Positions 12,791-22,208 of a stretch of DNA of 22,208 bases are shown piece by piece. Made by a program: the position numbers and the translations under genes. The stretch comes from Seison nebaliae (lineage: Eukaryota). The notes beneath the pieces are model-generated. The model saw only the letters and a program-made list of their open reading frames with translations, did not search any database and was not told the origin of the DNA. The stretch is from positions 62,001 to 84,208 of the forward strand of contig JALJEE010001986.1 of assembly GCA_023231475.1 (NCBI GenBank), written 5' to 3'. The first letter of the stretch is position 1; each line of letters opens with the position of its first letter.

Positions 12791-14620
12791 TTAATTTTTT
12801 GATTTTTTTTCCGTAGAAATTTCACTATTAGGTGAGCATTCTAATTTTCGTTTAATACCAGCTTTTGCATCTGTCGCTATAACAGGTTTGAGCATTTTAT
12901 GGACACTAAGTGCATTTGTCTCATAGGAAACAGATTCGTGCCAAAATATTCCATGAATATAAAAATTAAAATAAACTGGATCCGATTTGTCCAATAGAAA
13001 TTTCTTTAAATTTTTAATATAATGTACGTTACGATCGCTAATTAAATACCATTTCCATTCAACCATAGATTTGATGATAGCTAAAGAATGCGATTTCCCT
13101 TCACCTCCAATTGTTTCATATGGGATAAATATTGAATGATCTACGTTTTTTCCTTTCAGTTTTTGTTGAGCGTAATAAAATGCCCCTGCATTGACTAATG
13201 ATTCTTGCCAAATCGTTCGGTTAACGAATCTTTTTAAGTAACTTATTACTCTTTGTTTTTCTTCTTCGGTATACTTTTCCAAACTTGTTGAATTAAAACG
13301 TGAGAAGACCTCTTCATTACGACGATTATTCCATTCATGAGTTCCTTTTGGAAGGGCCACCGGATACGAATATTTATCTACTATATCATAAATAGTAGCA
13401 CTAGTTTCTAAGTGAAACGCATAAATAGTATAATCCACAAATGGATCTTCTGTGTCGAAGTCTTTAAACAATTTCATGGGCACAAATTGATCTTTGTTCC
13501 AAAAATTTTCAGGTAAAGTTGGATAGTATGGTGCAAAAACGAATGCTTCTGGAATAACTGTTATATATTTTTCGTATTTTAGAAAAGTTTTGATAGTTTT
13601 ATCGGTATTATATGATCTTAAAAGTTGGTCTACAAATTCCATTGTCTGTCCACTAGTTTGGGCAGCGAAGAAATGAACACGTTCAATTTGTTCGGTCGTA
13701 ATTACTATCTTGGGGAATCCGTGATCCATAATTATTTCCTCAGTTTGAAATTTAATCCACATCTCATCTTTAAAACGTTCCGAAAATGTTCGAATTTTGA
13801 GACTTTCCATATATTCGGTTAATGTTCCATCGAACTTATAGTATTCGATGTCAGATCTAACATAATCCAATTCAAAATGTATTAACTCTAAGGTTGGATA
13901 ATGTACGATGCATTTGTCACAGTTTATTGGAGAAAGTTTTTTTGATCCAACAACAGATTCGGAAGAAAAATCTGGTTTATAAACTGTCCGAATTATATCT
14001 TTGTCCGAAACATATTCAGGACCAAGGAAAAGTTGAGGCAACATAAATGCCATTGTGTTCCTTAAATTGTATGTTAACTCTTTTTTTTTTAGCGTATCTC
14101 TGTAGTACTTCATTTCCATCGTGAAATTTAAATCACTAGAACTATCCGGCTTTAATGAACTCCAAACGTTTTTATTCAGTTTGCAAGTTTTACCTTTTTT
14201 CAAAGATATTTGAACATTAGAAGCTGTTCTTTTTCCGGGAAATTTTGATATCATAGTGAACATTCTAAAGAAATTGTACAGGCATAAACTTGCCACTCTA
14301 TCACTATGGGAACCAACAGTATATTCAGATTTCTTATCTAAGTCATTTTCATTGACTTTATGAGCGCCAGTTAATATTAATACCTCATGTATCAAATACA
14401 TAGAAGGGAAAGTTTCGTTTAAATTAATCATATCACAAGTCCTAGTAGAATTGATGTTATTCAGTATATTACAAACATCTGGTGAACATTTATTATTTTC
14501 CAATATTTTGGTTATTAGAAATGGTGTGAATATGATAAATTGTAATGCAGATATTGATTGACATATCCCTCCTATGTTTTCGATGGCAGGAGGACTTACC
14601 ATCAGATTTCTATTAGTCAT
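12791..14620 (-). CDS. Intronless 609-aa divergent ubiquitin-specific protease-like (peptidase C19/USP) protein
   Basis: Cys-box-like AIENIGGICQSISALQFI (C20, codon 14563-14561) has the same spacing as GLxNxGNTCYxNSxLQxL. His-box-like GKSHSLAIIKSMVEWKWYLISDRNV (H511, codon 13090-13088; D529). C-terminal bipartite NLS-like KRK-x11-KKSK. That the ORF is coding is well supported; the USP assignment is motif-based only. Confidence 0.7.
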   Translation of the reverse strand: MTNRNLMVSPPAIENIGGICQSISALQFIIFTPFLITKILENNKCSPDVCNILNNINSTRTCDMINLNETFPSMYLIHEVLILTGAHKVNENDLDKKSEYTVGSHSDRVASLCLYNFFRMFTMISKFPGKRTASNVQISLKKGKTCKLNKNVWSSLKPDSSSDLNFTMEMKYYRDTLKKKELTYNLRNTMAFMLPQLFLGPEYVSDKDIIRTVYKPDFSSESVVGSKKLSPINCDKCIVHYPTLELIHFELDYVRSDIEYYKFDGTLTEYMESLKIRTFSERFKDEMWIKFQTEEIIMDHGFPKIVITTEQIERVHFFAAQTSGQTMEFVDQLLRSYNTDKTIKTFLKYEKYITVIPEAFVFAPYYPTLPENFWNKDQFVPMKLFKDFDTEDPFVDYTIYAFHLETSATIYDIVDKYSYPVALPKGTHEWNNRRNEEVFSRFNSTSLEKYTEEEKQRVISYLKRFVNRTIWQESLVNAGAFYYAQQKLKGKNVDHSIFIPYETIGGEGKSHSLAIIKSMVEWKWYLISDRNVHYIKNLKKFLLDKSDPVYFNFYIHGIFWHESVSYETNALSVHKMLKPVIATDAKAGIKRKLECSPNSEISTEKKSKN

Positions 14621-14784
14621 TTTTAAGATAATGCACTTTAAAACTAGGTGAAACAGAAAACAACCAAACTAACACAAAACGAATAATTGAAATACAAAAA
14701 GTCGTATAAACTACCAATGATGAACTTCTTATACGTTCGTGATGAAAATGAACTTCTGTATGAGTTCGTAAGAAAAAACCGAGC

Positions 14785-14866
14785 AGATCTTGTAATTTGT
14801 TATTTGAGTTTAATCCAAGATCGTATAAGTTAATACATGTTGACTTGCAAGATCCTGCAGCGTCTT
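14785..14866. repeat. Copy A of an 82-bp diverged direct repeat rich in AGATCT/CAAGATC units
   Basis: Ungapped manual alignment to 15190-15271 gives 62/82 identities. Confidence 0.85.
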
Positions 14867-14887
14867 GTTTTATCTATATATGTAAAC

Positions 14888-15159
14888 GGATGTAAACGTC
14901 CACTCAATCGAACATTTATGTTCCGCCTAATGGGCATCTCTTCTTTCCCATTGTTAATCGTTAAGAGATATTTGTCCCTCGTTTTCGATATTAAAGCATA
15001 TCCAGGGAACATTTGGAAGCACTCGTTGACAACTTTAGTTTCGAATCATTTATTCCTATTCATCTAAGGGATGAGTTGTCTCGTGGTCGTGATTTTATTT
15101 TCAGTAACAATTTTTCTTCCATTATTCATTTTCTTTACGCTTTACCCTATGGCCCATGA
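14888..15159 (+). mobile_element. Degraded 3' fragment of a non-LTR retrotransposon ORF, related to the element at 21757-22208
   Basis: GCKRPLNRTFMFRLMGISSFPLLIVKRYL vs GCHKPFNRAFMFTICELTPLPLLLAQRYL is 14/29 identical. In another frame from 15088, RDFIFSNNFSSIIHFLYALPYG vs RNLILNNSFKELSFFLFNLPRG is 9/22 identical. Confidence 0.75.
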
Positions 15160-15189
15160 CGAATTTCTTATATGAGTTGAAATTGAAGA

Positions 15190-15271
15190 AGATCTTGTTG
15201 TTTCTTATTTGAGTTTGACACAAGATCTTGCAAAATAGTACATTTGAACTTGCAAGATCTTACAAGATCTT
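15190..15271. repeat. Copy B of the 82-bp repeat; contains the CAAGATCTTG palindrome and a perfect 12-bp inverted repeat
   Basis: AAGATCTTGCAA (15222-15233) is the reverse complement of TTGCAAGATCTT (15250-15261). Four AAGATCTT units lie between 15189 and 15271. Confidence 0.85.
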
Positions 15272-15581
15272 ATCGGGTGTTATAAATTTCTGTTATATAT
15301 TTATTAATAAACTATAGTATAATATATATATATTTCATATAAATAATGATTAATAATAATATGTTCAAAAGTATAATTTAAAAAACTTTAACAAAAAAGA
15401 ATTATTTAGTATTTTATAAATATAATGACAAGTTTAATTAATATTTCAAATTTTGTTTTGCTCGTCGAATATCGTTGCACAACTGTGCCAGGGTCTTTTA
15501 CACTTTTCGTTCCCATTCAACGTCCGAAGATAAATGAAAAGATATAAAAGTTCCTAACCTGAATTTCTTCGTTTGATAACG

Positions 15582-15866
15582 TTAGTTCTCCAATTGCAAA
15601 CGATATTTTTTAAAATTAATTCGTCGTGCTAAAAGCAACGAAGAGATTATTCTAATATAATTTCTAATTTCGTCTATTATATCGTTCTGAAATTCCGTAA
15701 TTATTAATACATTCCTACTGAACCAATCTGCACTTAAGTTCTCTTTTCCTTTTCTATAGATGATGTGGTAATTGAATTGACTTAGCCTGATTGGCCAATT
15801 GTGTAAGCGCCTATTTGTTTCTCGTTGTTTCCATAGACTAATAAGCGGTTTGTGATCGGTGAATAT
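15582..15866 (-). mobile_element. Ty3/Gypsy pol fragment (RNase H C-terminal part), absent from the ORF track
   Basis: Manual translation IFTDHKPLISLWKQRETNRRLHNWPIRLSQFNYHIIYRKGKENLSADWFSR matches the Gypsy pattern TDHKPL...RLxxW...IxYRxGxxNxxADxxSR. Confidence 0.9.
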
Positions 15867-16102
15867 TTATTTATGTGTAATTATTTTATTACTTATAGTT
15901 TAATAATATGTTGTTTTATATATAATAATTATAAAATTATTTAATACAAATTAATAACATTAATTAAATATAATAATGTTATTATTTAAAATAAAAGTTC
16001 AAATTTAAAATTAAAGTCTATTAAAATACTCACGTGATAAGATATATAGTGATTTTGCCATCGTTTAAAATTTATTCATTAAACTATGAATCACGGTTTA
16101 AA

Positions 16103-16560
16103 TTACAATTTTCTCAACTCTAACGAGGAATCGGTAAACTTACCGTCATGCTTCAATCCGCCAGTGGAGATCGATGACTTGAATGGTGATAAACCATCTG
16201 CATTCACGAATAAACAAATTGTGTTATTACCGAAACTCTGAGTAAAGTGTTGAAATGTGGAGGAATTTTGGATGTCGACTGGAAATATGTTTCGCCGTTC
16301 ACCAACTACGAGAACGAATCGTTCACGATCGAAATTTTTCAAAAAAAATTATGTTTTGTTGTTTTCTTTCACATGGACTTTGAAATTAGGACATTCTTAA
16401 TTAATGCAATATGAGTCAATAGATTGCATGCAAATATGGCATATTGCCTGAGGCAGATAGTCTTCTTTTGCTTTAAACTTGTTTAAACAGCTTTCAAAAT
16501 AATCTATTGAAATATGTTTCTCAACGAAAATCGTAGAATTTTTAAAAAGTCATCAATTGA
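16103..16560 (-). mobile_element. CMC/EnSpm (CACTA-like) transposase remnant
   Basis: ICLFVNADGLSPFKSS (NADGLSPFKSS at 16204-16172) matches the NxDGxxxFKSS first-Asp motif of EnSpm-type transposases. An upstream Cys cluster CHIC-x7-C-IN*E-C (16441-16391) carries a stop codon. Confidence 0.7.
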
Positions 16561-16562
16561 CG

Positions 16563-17646
16563 CTATCGAACAATTGGACTGCTCTTACTTCTCCATCGTA
16601 CCATATCGTACAATTCCGTAACTATTGCCATATGCAATCTATTTCGTGGGAGTTGTTCATCGTCGACTAGCACCACTTCGCCTTTCTCAATGTGCCTAGT
16701 GGCACCGAACGATCTTCTATAGTTGTCGCGTAACTCTCTTAGATATTCGGCGTTGAAGCGATCTACTATCTCCGTTCCTCTATTTTTATATTCCCATAGA
16801 GTCTTCTTATGATCATGAGAGTTTTCGACTCCAATGGTTTCGATCAATCTTGGCGTTAAAATAATCGGTTCCCCAATGTTATCCTCATAAACATAACCAA
16901 GAGGGCGGGAGTTGATTTGTTTTTCAATTTCCTTTATTACAGTCTCGCATTCTTCGAAGGACTTATCATGTAATTGACCCACATTTCTCAATTGACTTTT
17001 TACAATTCCGACCATTCTTTCATAGAATCCTCCCCACCAAGGCGCTCGCGCTGGAATGAATCTCCATTTGGTGGCGACCATACTTCGATCCACTCGAAAT
17101 TGGTTCTCTATTGATCCCTTTGCACCAATAAATGTGGGAGCATTATCGCTTACAACTAATTTCGGGGCATCCTTTTGAGCCTTTGACCTTTATTGTCACA
17201 TGATCGATGACCACATTCAAATACACATTCCTAGTCACTGCGCATGAGAACAACAGCACATAGATTTATCGTCCATCCATTAGTTTCTCTTCTCCACTTT
17301 TAAGCGAGCGTATCAAATCGCCAAAGCATTGCTTTTGGTGTTGAATATAGATGTACTTGGAAGGCTTATCCCAAATTTCTTTTAATCTCTGCAACCGCGA
17401 CTTGTTTTTCTGTATCACTCTAAACTTTGTTAATACTCGTACTAGAGTCTTTAACACCCTCAAATGTTTAGAGAGCCCATTATAACGATCTAATGGGACG
17501 ATATCACTTTTAGATACCTTGATGTTGTCATTGTCGAATGGGCACAGTATGGCTTCCCCCGGCAATTTCGACCAATCTTGCGGTCATAGGTTGCTTCTTT
17601 CCGTGTCTGCTTTATAAGTTCCCCGAGAAAGCATGTCCGTTGGATT
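16563..17646 (-). mobile_element. BEL/Pao LTR-retrotransposon pol remnant (RNase H end plus integrase), internally deleted
   Basis: Motifs NPTDMLSRG (17646-17620), YVLLFSCAVTRNVYL, VVSDNAPTF, WRFIPARAPWWGGFYERMVGIVK, INSRPL, ILTP, GEVVLVDDEQLPR. Stops and frameshifts present. Confidence 0.92.
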
Positions 17647-17770
17647 AAGGGAGATTAAGGGATAAGGGATATGTGTCGTATTTCGCAACTTCCAACATCC
17701 AACAATTTATTGGGATCCAACGAATTTACAATTCTATATCCCAGTTTTTATCCAATATAGGGTTATTCAT

Positions 17771-18550
17771 TTGGTTATAGACCTTTATTCGGATTTTGAG
17801 GACTTTTATTCATCGGATATAGATTTCTATTCATCAACTAATGGATTAGCTATTGATGGAAGCCACATCCCTATAAAGAAACCTCCTGGAAAGAATACAG
17901 ATTTTTTATATTTTTATCGAAAGAGATTTCTATCAATAGATATCGCTGCTGTCGATGGAAGAAAATTATTTAAATTTGTCGAGATCGGAAGAAAAGGTAG
18001 GAAACACGATAATTCCATTTTCGAGCAATCTTCTCTTCGAATTTGGCTAAGTAGTTGTTCTACCAATAAGTTTTATTATGAAGATCAGCAGTTAAAGCCG
18101 TTAATAATCAGAGATGCCGCATTTCGCTTAGATTGCGACGTAATGAAGCCATATCCTTCTGAAGAAAGTTTGCTTCTGTCTATTTTATAATTTATGTACT
18201 GTTTAATCTTATCTATCTTTAATTTATTACCTTAGCTTCATTGAAAAAAACATTCAACACCATTTTGGCACAATACCGAATTGTCGTTGAAAATGCATTT
18301 GGAATGCTCAAAAATAAATGGCGTATTCTGACAACTGTAATATGTAATTGTATAATTAATATGACAAATGTATAATTCTGTATGCGTGCTGCATCCTTTA
18401 CAATTTCCATTTAATAAGATCAGAATATTTTTTGGAATTTCCCTGCCAAATGGAACCCGATGTGGAGACAATAAATGAAACCGATGTAGAAACTGGAACA
18501 ATATCAGGTAAATCTATTCGATATAAAATTGCAAATTATCTTCGTTTATT
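17771..18550 (+). mobile_element. PIF/Harbinger DDE transposase remnant with a putative intron at 18168-18235
   Basis: AIDGSHIPIKKP, GRKHDNSIFEQS, DAAF, MKPYP, then after the intron FNTILAQYRIVVENAFGMLKNKWRIL. Downstream stop and frameshift. Boundaries approximate. Confidence 0.9.
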
Positions 18551-21294
18551 TCACAATAATTGAATGTAATGTTCGGTAACAAACGAAAAGTCCAAAAGGT
18601 TCATTTGCCATCTCCATATTTTGTTACTTATTTCGTTGGATTTAAGTAAAAGTCGACATGCCGCCGTATTATCTGTTCTTATGATAAATTTTTTGTGAAG
18701 AAGATGATATCGAAAGTGACGTATAAAATGATATATCGCGAATGCTTCGATTTCATTGATATGCCATTTTGTTTCTGAAGCAGTTAAAATTTTTGAAGCA
18801 TATTCAATAATAAATTCGACGTTGTCGCTTAATTGGAAGAGAACTGCACCAATGGCTTTTGTTGAAGTGTCTACTTGTAGAATAAACTTGCGGTTCCAAT
18901 CCGGTTTCGCCAGTACTGGTGGATGAATTCGATGAATTTCCGTCCATTGAAGCTTATTCCATTTGATTATATCGTATAAAGGTGATAATATTTCATTGAA
19001 TTTTGGCACGAATTTTCGATAGTAATTAGCCATACCGAGACAAGATCGGACTTCTTTCAGATTATTCGGTTCTGCGATCTTTTGTAATGCGACAACTTTT
19101 GCTGGATCTGCCTTCAAACCTTTCTTGGAGACTATATATCCTAGGAATGATATACGTTTACGAGGACGATGTTCGAACACCAGCTACTGATAGATTTACG
19201 GATTATCCCTTTCTTTAGCATGTCGTCACATAATTCGTCGATTATTATACTTTCTCCGTGAGCGTAACGTCTTTGTTTTGTCTTAATTGGCGATTCCGTT
19301 ACCGTCTCGATTCGATGTTCCACTAGTGAAGTACAATGATCGATATTGATTTTCAATTGTTCGAATTGGATATTTTCTTGAGGTGTCGTTGCGATTGATG
19401 TAATTGAACCAATTTTCTCTTGTAGTCCGTCGAGAGAATTAAGGATGACGATGCATTGTTGATTGTAGTTAATTGCGAGATTATATTTCGCAAGCATATT
19501 ACTGCGAATTATGCGGTTATAACGACATGATGGTACGACATAATAAGCCGTATGTATTTCTTTGTCGTCGATTTTGATGCATGTTTCTAATTTTCTCGAT
19601 ATTGAAACTTGACCCACATTTAATGGTCCCTGAAGGATTTTGATCGTTTTTTCAAATTCGATAGACGGTAAACCTTCAGCGAGCTCTTCGCTAATGATAC
19701 TTTGCTGAGCTCCACCATCTATGAGCGCTTCCACGTTGATCCCATGAATATTAATTGCCGAAAAAGAAAGATTGTTTTTGAAATTAAGGTTCCCTGCCCA
19801 TTCATGTCGCTCTGGATGGTGGTTATTGTCAATGTAATTACATATGTATAACGAATATTCTTCTTTGGAATTGTTATTTATCGAGAATATTCGAGTGCTT
19901 CTTGGGACTTCTGTATCCTTGATGCTTAATGCATGTGTTTAATTTGCACCATTTGCAGTTTCGATCTTTATGGTGATATGTACATTGATTTGCTACACAT
20001 TTCCTGCATTTTCCTTTGTAATCATTTCGCCGTGACCTCGTGTTGTTTGTTGCGTATTATTATAAGAGAGATTTGATATGTTTGAGTTGAGCAGTTCAAC
20101 ATTTTTCTTTCCTAAATTGTTCGATGCATATTTTTCCTCTTCTTCGATGTCAGATGCTGCGATAATGAGATCGGCAGTTCCAACATTCGGGTTACTTTTT
20201 ATCATCCTGAAGAACTTTTTTCCGATTTTTTCGTCATGTATGCCCTTCATAAATTGATTCCGAATAAGAATTAACAACTCTGAATCATTTGTATGTTGAT
20301 AAGCGATTTCTCTGATTTCTTTCACCCGTACATAGAAGTCCGCTACATGTTCGTTGCTTCGACGATAAAGTTGCTGAAATAGTTGATTTGTATGAAAGAT
20401 AATTGATTATTTCATATAATGTAGAATGTCGTTTTGAATCTTTTAATCGTTCTACTTCTATCATCGCGCGTTCCTCGTTTCTCAATGCATTCCAGAAAAT
20501 TTCCATATGCATTTCTTCTGGGATTCTATTTGAAGATAAGTAGAGTTTCATTCGTTTACTCCAAGAAGGAAAGTTTTCCTCTTCGTTTTTTTTCGATTAT
20601 TGGCTGATTTTTATCGCCTTTTTCCAAATTTGGTGAATTTTGGAAAAGTTTTCTTTCGTTCGAAATATTTTTCTCGAATGGGAGTTCGTAATGGGATGTA
20701 TTATTCAAACGATTAATGACGAGTTGGTTTAATGATTTGCTTCGATTTAACAACGGTGTGACGTTGTAATCATTTTCCACGAGAAATTATAGAAATTGTT
20801 CCAATCTTCCAATTTGCTTAGAGAAGGACGTAATGTAGTTGAGGTTATCATCAGATATCGTTTTAAATTTCGAAAGCGTTCGATTTTTTTCGTTTAAATG
20901 AGATTTTATATTCGTTTTTCTGTCATTCACCATTGTTACGAAAGTTGATCCTTTCGGCATTGTCACTACTATGACTTCCTCGCTTCCTATAGTTTCCACG
21001 GAAACATTTATTTTGTCTTTAGATAGATCTGGTTCGAGTGCGTTGAATTCGATCTTCTCCGCTTCATCTATCGAATTGATAACTTTTGAAATTTCTTTTA
21101 TTTTCGTTTCGCCGATAGTTACTGATTGTGGTGAATTCAATTTTTTTGTCATTTTAAGACTTATTATGTCTTCATTAATTGCTTTGAGACTTTTGTTGGT
21201 CATCGTCATAAATGTGGTGATTTGGTTCCGTAAAAATCTTTGATTTTCTTCCATTAATAATCTTAATTTATTAATTTGAAGATTTATCCATCCG

Positions 21295-21636: not shown

Positions 21637-21756
21637 TTAGGTAATAATTAATAGTTTATCGAATATTGTAAGAACTTTAAACATTTTAAATCTCTCTATA
21701 CGTCTTTTCTATTTTGTTTTTATTTTCAATTTATCGCGAAGGGTTTCGATTTTATA

Positions 21757-22208
21757 TTTTTTTTTTTTTTATTTATAGCAAATCTCCGCGGGGTAAATTA
21801 AAAAGAAAAAAAGATAACTCCTTAAAGGAGTTATTTAAGATTAGGTTCCTGCTCGTTACAATAAAATGCTTGAGTGCTTCAGGAACGTGATAAGACAAAT
21901 CAAAATTAGATGTCACCGATAAAGCGTCTTCCACTGAAAGAGGATAATTTAACGAGTAATAACGGCAGAAAAATTGGAGAGGCGACGAGAAGCTCTCACA
22001 TTGTGTATACGTTGGAACTGAAAGAGTTGAACTGCGAACAGAATCAACTATTTTCAGATACCTCTGTGCCAGGAGTAATGGCAAAGGAGTCAATTCGCAA
22101 ATCGTGAACATAAATGCTCTATTGAAAGGCTTATGACAACCGAGCATCATCCGAACTGATCTATTATATGTTCGATCAAGACATCGTAATGACTTATCAG
22201 TATTCGAA
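21757..22208 (-). mobile_element. 3' end of a non-LTR (LINE-like) retrotransposon with poly(A) tail; runs off the window
   Basis: Open frame from the window edge: SLRCLDRTYNRSVRMMLGCHKPFNRAFMFTICELTPL, resembling the post-RT region of LINE ORF2. Stop TAA at 21775-21773, then AT and A14 (21770-21757). The RT core is not visible in the window. Confidence 0.72.

Follow-up and report, generated by a model that had tools for sequence, protein, structure and literature searches.

A long open reading frame (ORF) at the edge of decayed transposable elements in the genome of Seison nebaliae raises two questions, namely whether its product is a deubiquitinase (DUB) and whether it belongs to the host or to a mobile element. 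This relative of the rotifers lives as an epizoan on Nebalia and reproduces strictly sexually; its genome is compact, at about 46 Mb (44–46 Mb), and is described as 16% repetitive and as having lost many genes (PMC8351084). The window analysed here is a stretch of 22,208 nucleotides (contig JALJEE010001986.1, positions 62,001 to 84,208). An earlier, sequence-only reading of it had proposed an intact, intronless and highly divergent gene of the ubiquitin-specific protease (USP) type, possibly cargo of a transposon or a virus.

A single-frame gene with a shortened public model

Translation of the window bore out the ORF of 609 codons plus stop, free of disablements, and placed it on the minus strand, a detail absent from the sequence-only reading; the plus strand across the same interval is full of stops. 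The stop-to-stop frame comprises 625 codons; when the bases of the window were shuffled 200 times, the longest frames averaged 111 and never exceeded 183 codons. The start at M1 is consistent with the paralogues described below, with which the protein shares an Arg-x-Pro..Pro-Pro stretch ahead of the Cys box. The intronless state was confirmed in so far as the gene occupies a single frame, but it is not special to this gene, because two further long ORFs in the same window, one of 349 and one of 501 codons, likewise run in a single frame. No poly(A) remnant, which might have pointed to retroposition, was found directly after the stop codon, and an Rfam search over positions 11600–16600 of the window gave no match. 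The features of the locus are collected in Table 1.

Table 1. Positions in the window of the USP-like gene, its predicted functional elements and its neighbours.
Feature	Position	Strand	Basis
Single-frame gene, 609 aa, predicted USP-fold and likely cysteine protease	12791..14620	-	ORF, motifs, predicted fold
Public gene model, 420 aa from M190, Cys box missing	12791..14053	-	Match to own database protein
Cys box from N15 (putative oxyanion Asn) to C20 (putative nucleophile)	14561..14578	-	Conservation, USP7 spacing
Four predicted strands, residues 209-250, candidate fingers sheet	13871..13996	-	Model secondary structure
Predicted three-helix insertion, residues 427-488, between conserved Y397 strand and catalytic His	13157..13342	-	Model
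H511 (likely catalytic His) and S512 at the place of the aromatic gatekeeper	13085..13090	-	Alignment
S528-D529, probably the critical residues at the third and fourth positions	13034..13039	-	USP7 spacing
Host PCNA, downstream neighbour, 100% identical to SNEBB_003578 of S. nebaliae	10873..11673	-	Protein search
High-copy repeat, decayed, 270 bp upstream of the gene	14887..15152	+ (opposite)	Depth, loose ends
85-nt direct repeat pair, 75% alike, flanking the repeat 14887..15152	14782-14866 + 15187-15271		Repeat search; raised depth

Predicted fold

The AF2 model built from the single sequence had a pLDDT of 29.9 and no usable fold; with a family alignment of 28 rows the pLDDT was 82.3 and the pTM 0.86. 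Foldseek, one of the checks that had been suggested from the sequence, gave USP7 as the best match (E 3.9e-4); the global TM was low (0.28 by query and 0.46 by target). With VIA, superposition of the model (range 8–578) on USP7 (5kye) gave a Z score of 17.9 and an rmsd of 3.7 over 263 of 330 residues, and all 50 rows of the result were USP-family chains. In a search of 48,161 chains, ranks 1–36 were occupied by USP-fold chains (Z 17.9–9.3), followed by viral (coronavirus) PLpro at 8.3 or below. The predicted similarity extends over the whole USP/C19 catalytic domain (Z 17–18 to USP7, USP54, USP11, USP25/28 and USP1). USP7, USP54, USP11 and USP25 were tied near Z 17.5, ahead of CYLD (14.2), USPL1 (12.9) and TssM (9.3), and no USP subfamily stands out in these scores. 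From the model, a USP fold with thumb, palm and fingers may be assigned to the protein with good confidence.

The proposed divergence from known USPs is also evident. The protein is only 10–15% identical to USP/C19 domains and falls below the Pfam cut-off; the Pfam UCH profile (PF00443), which had been named as a first check, does not match the 609-aa product. Two of the 28 family members reach UCH at the His box with 15.3 and 12.9 bits, below the cut-off of 23.9, and searches of PDB sequences with the gene product, the alignments and two paralogues yielded chance matches only.

Within the model, the four strands at residues 209–250 are likely to form the fingers sheet; conserved Cys pairs were not found in this candidate sheet (alignment columns 233 and 236). 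Compared with a USP catalytic domain, the family has about 300 extra intradomain residues, among them the predicted helical insertion ahead of the His, and no accessory domains. The spacing from Y397 to H511 is 106–123 residues in 23 of 24 rows and 84 in the remaining one.

Putative active site

The canonical USP motifs GNTCY and GHY read GGICQ and SHS in the translated ORF, as the sequence-only reading had noted, and N15, C20, H511 and D529 were found at the positions that it gave. A box of the QQD type, which binds the ubiquitin tail, is not visible in alignment columns 104–120, a poorly aligned stretch (pLDDT below 50 at 93–108). Among the rows that cover them, N15 is conserved in 15/15, C20 in 16/16 and H511 in 24/24, and these three residues belong to the six invariant columns of 585 (at least 12 rows each), the others being P10, E79 and W374.

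The critical residues of USP7 are N218, C223, H464, D481 and D482 (PMC10867860). Compared by spacing, the Asn-x4-Cys arrangement of the Seison family and the two positions that follow the His correspond to those of USP7, with equal steps of 5, 17 and 18 residues; S528 and D529 are located 17 and 18 residues after H511. The third position is Ser in eight, Asp in seven, Asn in six and another residue in four of 25 rows, thus Asp, Asn or Ser in 21/25, as in human USPs. The fourth position is usually Asn (22 rows, with Asp in two and Ser in one), whereas human USPs have Asp there in 96.4% of cases (PMC10867860). Ser is found at the third catalytic position of USP16, USP30 and USP45, which are active human enzymes (PMC10867860), and the S528-D529 pair of the present member is alike; this resemblance extends to the eight Seison rows with Ser only, and the fold scores of the model to USP30 and USP16 (Z 15.6 and 15.2) are lower than to USP7.

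Catalysis by the family is strongly implied by these sequence features, and the present protein is likely to be an active cysteine protease, because N15, C20 and H511 are invariant and have the spacing of USP7. By the same invariance and spacing, C20 would attack the peptide bond after activation by H511, with N15 and S528/D529 presumably orienting the His and holding the oxyanion. That the proteins are instead dead USP scaffolds with a structural use, like the poxvirus core protein A3 or the PAN2 pseudo-USP, is highly improbable. Pox P4B clusters do occur among the Atlas features of two members, and the length is similar (640 aa), but A3 is described as a dead USP whose catalytic residues are Leu/Leu/Val (10.1101/2022.11.22.517515), whereas the corresponding residues of the Seison family are the invariant ones. 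A3 is not among the matches listed in the fold searches, which need not mean that it is unlike the model.

A family of paralogues in one species

A phmmer search of 1,835,955,588 representative proteins (E ≤ 1e-3) returned 28 matches, namely the gene's own public model and 27 others with 21–44% identity, the long relatives having 589–641 aa. Each of the 27 is annotated as a hypothetical protein and comes from S. nebaliae, and no relative outside this species was detected among the 1.84 billion proteins. The sequence-only reading had held out, as the alternative to a mobile origin, that an ordinary host USP might have the gene as its single-copy orthologue, and this was not what emerged; judged by sequence, the gene belongs to a family of at least 28 paralogues restricted to one species, whose parent USP would by default be a host gene.

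The members have diverged far from each other (median pairwise identity 21% over 372 pairs). The library was clustered at 50%, which would hide closer copies; at 90%, however, 26 of the 27 relatives form clusters of their own, and the remaining pair shares a locus tag. Members are found on about 27 contigs, and one pair, P0026 and P0029, seems to share a contig; the two have neighbouring locus tags and a contig of equal length and are apparently local duplicates. The family may be compared with mammalian USP17/DUB, the known species-specific multi-copy USP expansion (PMC2874809); USP17 genes, however, are in tandem repeats, and the Seison members are about 21% identical and dispersed, with at least 28 of them in one genome of 44–46 Mb.

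Both catalytic boxes are present in 15 rows, and 13 of 28 are without one or both; the latter may be truncated models or pseudogenes. The family tree (27 rows, no outgroup) has two deep groups and long terminal branches; P0002, P0016 and P0021 were omitted from it, with P0030 standing in for P0021. At 80% likeness, other contigs match short parts of the gene's DNA only, about 80–85% alike and mainly at codons 10–79 and 511–528, that is, at the two catalytic boxes. We read the matches to both parts as lying on the same 9-kb contig, and in one of the partly matching contigs the depth is only about one sixth. Of the differences in the Cys-box region, 15 are listed out of a larger number, and these fall on third (8), first (5) and second (2) codon positions.

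Word-based homologue searches with the protein and the alignment matched the gene's own truncated model only and were blind also to the known Seison relatives. In the openly accessible literature that was searched, nothing was found in print on deubiquitinases of rotifers or Seison, nor on a lineage-specific expansion of intronless ubiquitin-specific protease paralogues, and the word 'ubiquitin' is absent from the main texts of PMC8351084 and PMC12256650 and from two supplements of the former. Within these searches, the species-restricted family of at least 28 members is undescribed.

Genomic setting and the question of a mobile origin

The USP-like gene is chromosomal and not an assembly artefact, because one contig joins it to host genes. 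This contig, obtained from runs of two studies, covers 5017–14956 (two runs) or 9340–14956 (one run) with 2 to 4 differences; in its longer form it joins the kinase, PCNA and USP-like ORFs, and its end falls at a repeat. Three differences in these contigs lie inside the ORF (L542L, S512S and T354K). A near-identical second copy that would break the contig was not found in the runs of the two studies.

On one side of the gene, a domain scan of 17 of the 35 long ORFs of the window identified PCNA, a kinase, GPDH and ST7. The next-best matches of PCNA are at most 61% identical, so that even this protein points to fast divergence of the S. nebaliae lineage. The decayed elements that had been noted beside the ORF are real but confined to its 5' side, where a BEL/Pao-type integrase piece, DDE_Tnp_4, gypsy-type RT/RNase H and aspartyl protease pieces and LINE scraps were found. 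The nearest repeat (14887..15152) has 40.5% identity over 37 aa (E 3e-11) to an ORF at 21773–22207, and both are presumably LINE-like. This repeat is an upstream insertion and not the carrier of the USP-like gene.

The gene is therefore unlikely to be current transposon or virus cargo, as the sequence-only reading had supposed: one contig holds it together with host genes, the neighbouring repeat is a LINE scrap, and neither recognisable termini nor near-identical copies were found, nor viral neighbours among the ORFs scanned. The accompanying remark, that no described C19 cargo family of this kind was known, also needs correction, since UCH domains are reported in Helentron/HLE2 Helitrons (PMC11417382) and a protein combining a transposase with C19 in Trichomonas (PMC2836005). 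Transposon cargo proteases, which further include the OTU and Ulp1 types of Ginger, MULE and Helitron elements, resemble the present case in that a protease of the ubiquitin system lies near transposon sequence; they differ in being detectable by Pfam and located within or fused to their elements, whereas the Seison gene is stand-alone.

An older mobile past is a separate matter. The family could have been spread long ago by a transposon, of the Helentron or another type, or by a large DNA virus, and then been kept or left behind, with counter-silencing or the processing of element proteins as its job. Its restriction to one species, the position of this single-frame gene next to decayed elements and the known C19 cargo of HLE2 Helitrons and Trichomonas all fit such a history. 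Furthermore, only five of 27 member contigs are as long as 45.7 kb (p 0.0008 in a binomial test, provided that the published N50 holds for these records), and short member contigs suggest repeat-rich sites, with which a mobile past also agrees. Giant-virus USPs are listed by both Atlas and BFVD, if weakly, and among the named Atlas clusters those of giant-virus USPs and of poxvirus P4b come closest (0.91–0.92, with recognition below threshold), a weak lead away from a host USP as parent.

Against this stand the absence of a near-identical copy of the gene, the isolation of nearly all relatives in their 90% clusters, and the length of the longest relative (641 aa), which means that none is fused to a transposase. 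Neither terminal repeats nor a target duplication were found and the flanks share short AT-rich chance matches, although termini of great age would no longer be recognisable. A scan that covered 17 of the 35 long ORFs and, in the flanks of the gene, 14 of 37 short frames revealed no Helitron (RepHel) or viral domain, and GC content by codon position resembles that of host ORFs. Giant-virus USPs and poxvirus A3/P4b share the USP fold and a weak likeness of Atlas features with the family but no sequence similarity, and viral genes are lacking among the window ORFs scanned. The best viral fold in BFVD has an E of 6.6e-3, with none below 1e-3, compared with 3.9e-4 for the best PDB match in a different library, and a pattern scan of viral and metagenome contigs with the gene product, sensitive to close relatives only, was blank. 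Three PHROGs matches (E 0.03–0.09) were disregarded. We regard an ancient mobile or viral origin as rather improbable. Under the host origin that we prefer, a host USP would probably have been duplicated many times, its copies diverging fast in regions of the genome rich in repeats; this assignment is by default only, since no sequence link to any host USP was found.

The missing gatekeeper and the substrate

The designation as a deubiquitinase holds for the USP-type fold and the catalytic residues, but deubiquitination itself has become doubtful, because the change from GHY to SHS is one instance of a loss that affects the whole family, namely that of the aromatic gatekeeper. The His is followed by Ser in 15 rows, by Ala in three and by Gly, Ile, Met, Val, Leu or Thr in the others, and by an aromatic residue in none (0/24). 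The motif His-[Phe/Tyr/Trp] is reported as the only predictive mark of Gly-Gly-cleaving DUBs across their classes, with a 477-fold enrichment; its aromatic residue packs on Gly75, is described as absent from UFM1 and ATG8 proteases, and on removal admits bulkier probes, in USP21 among others (PMC7391069). The USPs tested need this residue, as exchange of Tyr for Ala abolished chain cleavage in three Simkania USPs (PMC10643670), and two Simkania Josephins without gatekeeper cut before the di-glycine and are thus clippases (10.1101/2024.07.24.604956). We do not file the family as USP deubiquitinases, since one of the defining marks fails. Loss of the gatekeeper alone, however, does not fix the substrate, because the ZUFSP and VTD families are DUBs without the aromatic motif (PMC10643670, PMC7391069) and many clippases have kept it (10.1101/2024.07.24.604956).

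The members might accordingly still be conventional deubiquitinases that cut after Gly-Gly, with another residue or the helical insertion in place of the gatekeeper, and so form an invertebrate counterpart of the USP17/DUB expansion. Retention of the whole predicted USP domain, the fingers-like sheet included, the Ser-Asp pair shared with active human USPs, and the precedents for both motif-less DUBs and species-specific USP expansions (PMC2874809) favour this reading. It is nevertheless unlikely in view of the gatekeeper lost from every row, Asn at the fourth position where human USPs nearly always have Asp, the unseen QQD-type box in its poorly aligned stretch, and the loss of activity that removal of the gatekeeper Tyr causes in USP-family members (PMC10643670).

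Judged by its sequences, the family is likely to be a species-restricted expansion of USP-derived proteases in which the substrate or the cut site has changed. In its specific form, to which we give a probability of about 0.55, this reading holds that the chromosomal gene, with its at least 28 paralogues, encodes a protein of predicted USP fold that is probably an active intracellular cysteine protease and that, lacking the gatekeeper, probably cuts a ubiquitin-like tail at a shifted site or after a bulky residue rather than after Gly-Gly. A folded ubiquitin-like domain would then be held by the retained fingers sheet, the pocket which in canonical USPs takes Gly75 only would be open because of Ser512, and the helical insertion ahead of the His may reshape the cleft. 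We suggest more tentatively, and without counting on it, that S. nebaliae has some 30 active animal USP-derived proteases off the Gly-Gly rule, which would be the first USP-fold family to clip ubiquitin irreversibly ahead of its di-glycine, to take off modifiers such as UFM1 or ATG8, or to cut unrelated proteins, hidden from Pfam and half of them mis-annotated without their Cys.

A family with the predicted USP fold and invariant catalytic residues but no gatekeeper would amount to a natural experiment in change of deubiquitinase substrate, with 15 apparently complete variants for comparison. Any of these that clip ubiquitin would count as animal clippases and might serve as reagents. One would not expect such an expansion in a compact genome known chiefly for gene loss (PMC8351084), and it indicates that large enzyme families missed by profile searches can be present in genomes of this kind.

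Functional parallels also exist outside the USPs. SnJos1/2, FMDV Lbpro and the UFM1 and ATG8 proteases are papain-fold Cys-His proteases acting on ubiquitin-like tails, as the Seison proteins may be, and SnJos1/2 and the UFM1 and ATG8 proteases also have no aromatic motif and do not cleave after Gly-Gly. USPs have been grouped with the FMDV leader protease by fold (PMC10318531). These enzymes nevertheless belong to other fold families, the Seison model scoring only Z 6.1 to Josephin, 6.1 to Lbpro and 5.4 to ATG4A, and the parallel is one of functional analogy only.

An intracellular role is likely, because C20 is too near to the N-terminus for a signal peptide to precede it, and in the complete members the windows of highest hydrophobicity lie on the catalytic helix or within the domain. 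The secreted, host-manipulating role entertained by the sequence-only reading is left without support for the same reason. Other single-exon, fast-evolving enzyme families have a germline or sperm role, and by analogy with these such a role might be considered for the Seison family.

Gene models of the protease family

The public model of the protease gene, P0002, starts too late to include the catalytic cysteine, and the Cys box is likewise missing from 12 further gene models of the family, so that current annotation may conceal additional complete enzymes.

Features of the window discussed here
Feature	Position	Strand	Remark
Single-frame ORF	6029-7108	-	long open frame, 349 codons from Met
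Single-frame ORF	7221-8735	-	long open frame, 501 codons from Met
PCNA	10873-11673	-	host gene
Short stretch	12370-12530		multi-copy
P0002	12791-14053	-	begins at M190, catalytic Cys left out
Small repeat, two copies	14719-14866, 15187-15271		either side of LINE-like scrap
Single frame	16103-16348	-	region multi-copy in the sequencing runs
BEL/Pao-type integrase (DUF5641)	16563-17583	-	nested, decayed
DDE_Tnp_4	17666-18513		nested, decayed
Gypsy-type protease/RT/RNase H	18551-20596	-	nested, decayed
End of window	21646-22208		LINE-like repeat

Surroundings of the protease gene

About 260 bp past the stop codon lies the multi-copy short stretch, with a depth 8-10 times that of the local contig and no match in Rfam. 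The small repeat upstream also occurs at raised depth at other genomic sites; it may represent either a short element or part of a promoter that paralogues have in common. Among the nested elements, the DDE_Tnp_4 piece is of the PIF/Harbinger type, and a relative of the integrase piece with better coverage is present in the runs. The frame at 16103-16348 carries a motif known from CACTA/CMC-type transposases; its single, weak Pfam match is unrelated to these.

Seison PCNA, with at most 61% identity to each of the 119 other matches listed, is strongly diverged for such a protein. Neither long ORF matched Pfam; the 501-codon product has a start rich in Ser, Arg and Lys and an acidic, coiled-coil-like part. 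The repeat at the end of the window is abundant, with a depth more than 200-fold that of a single contig.
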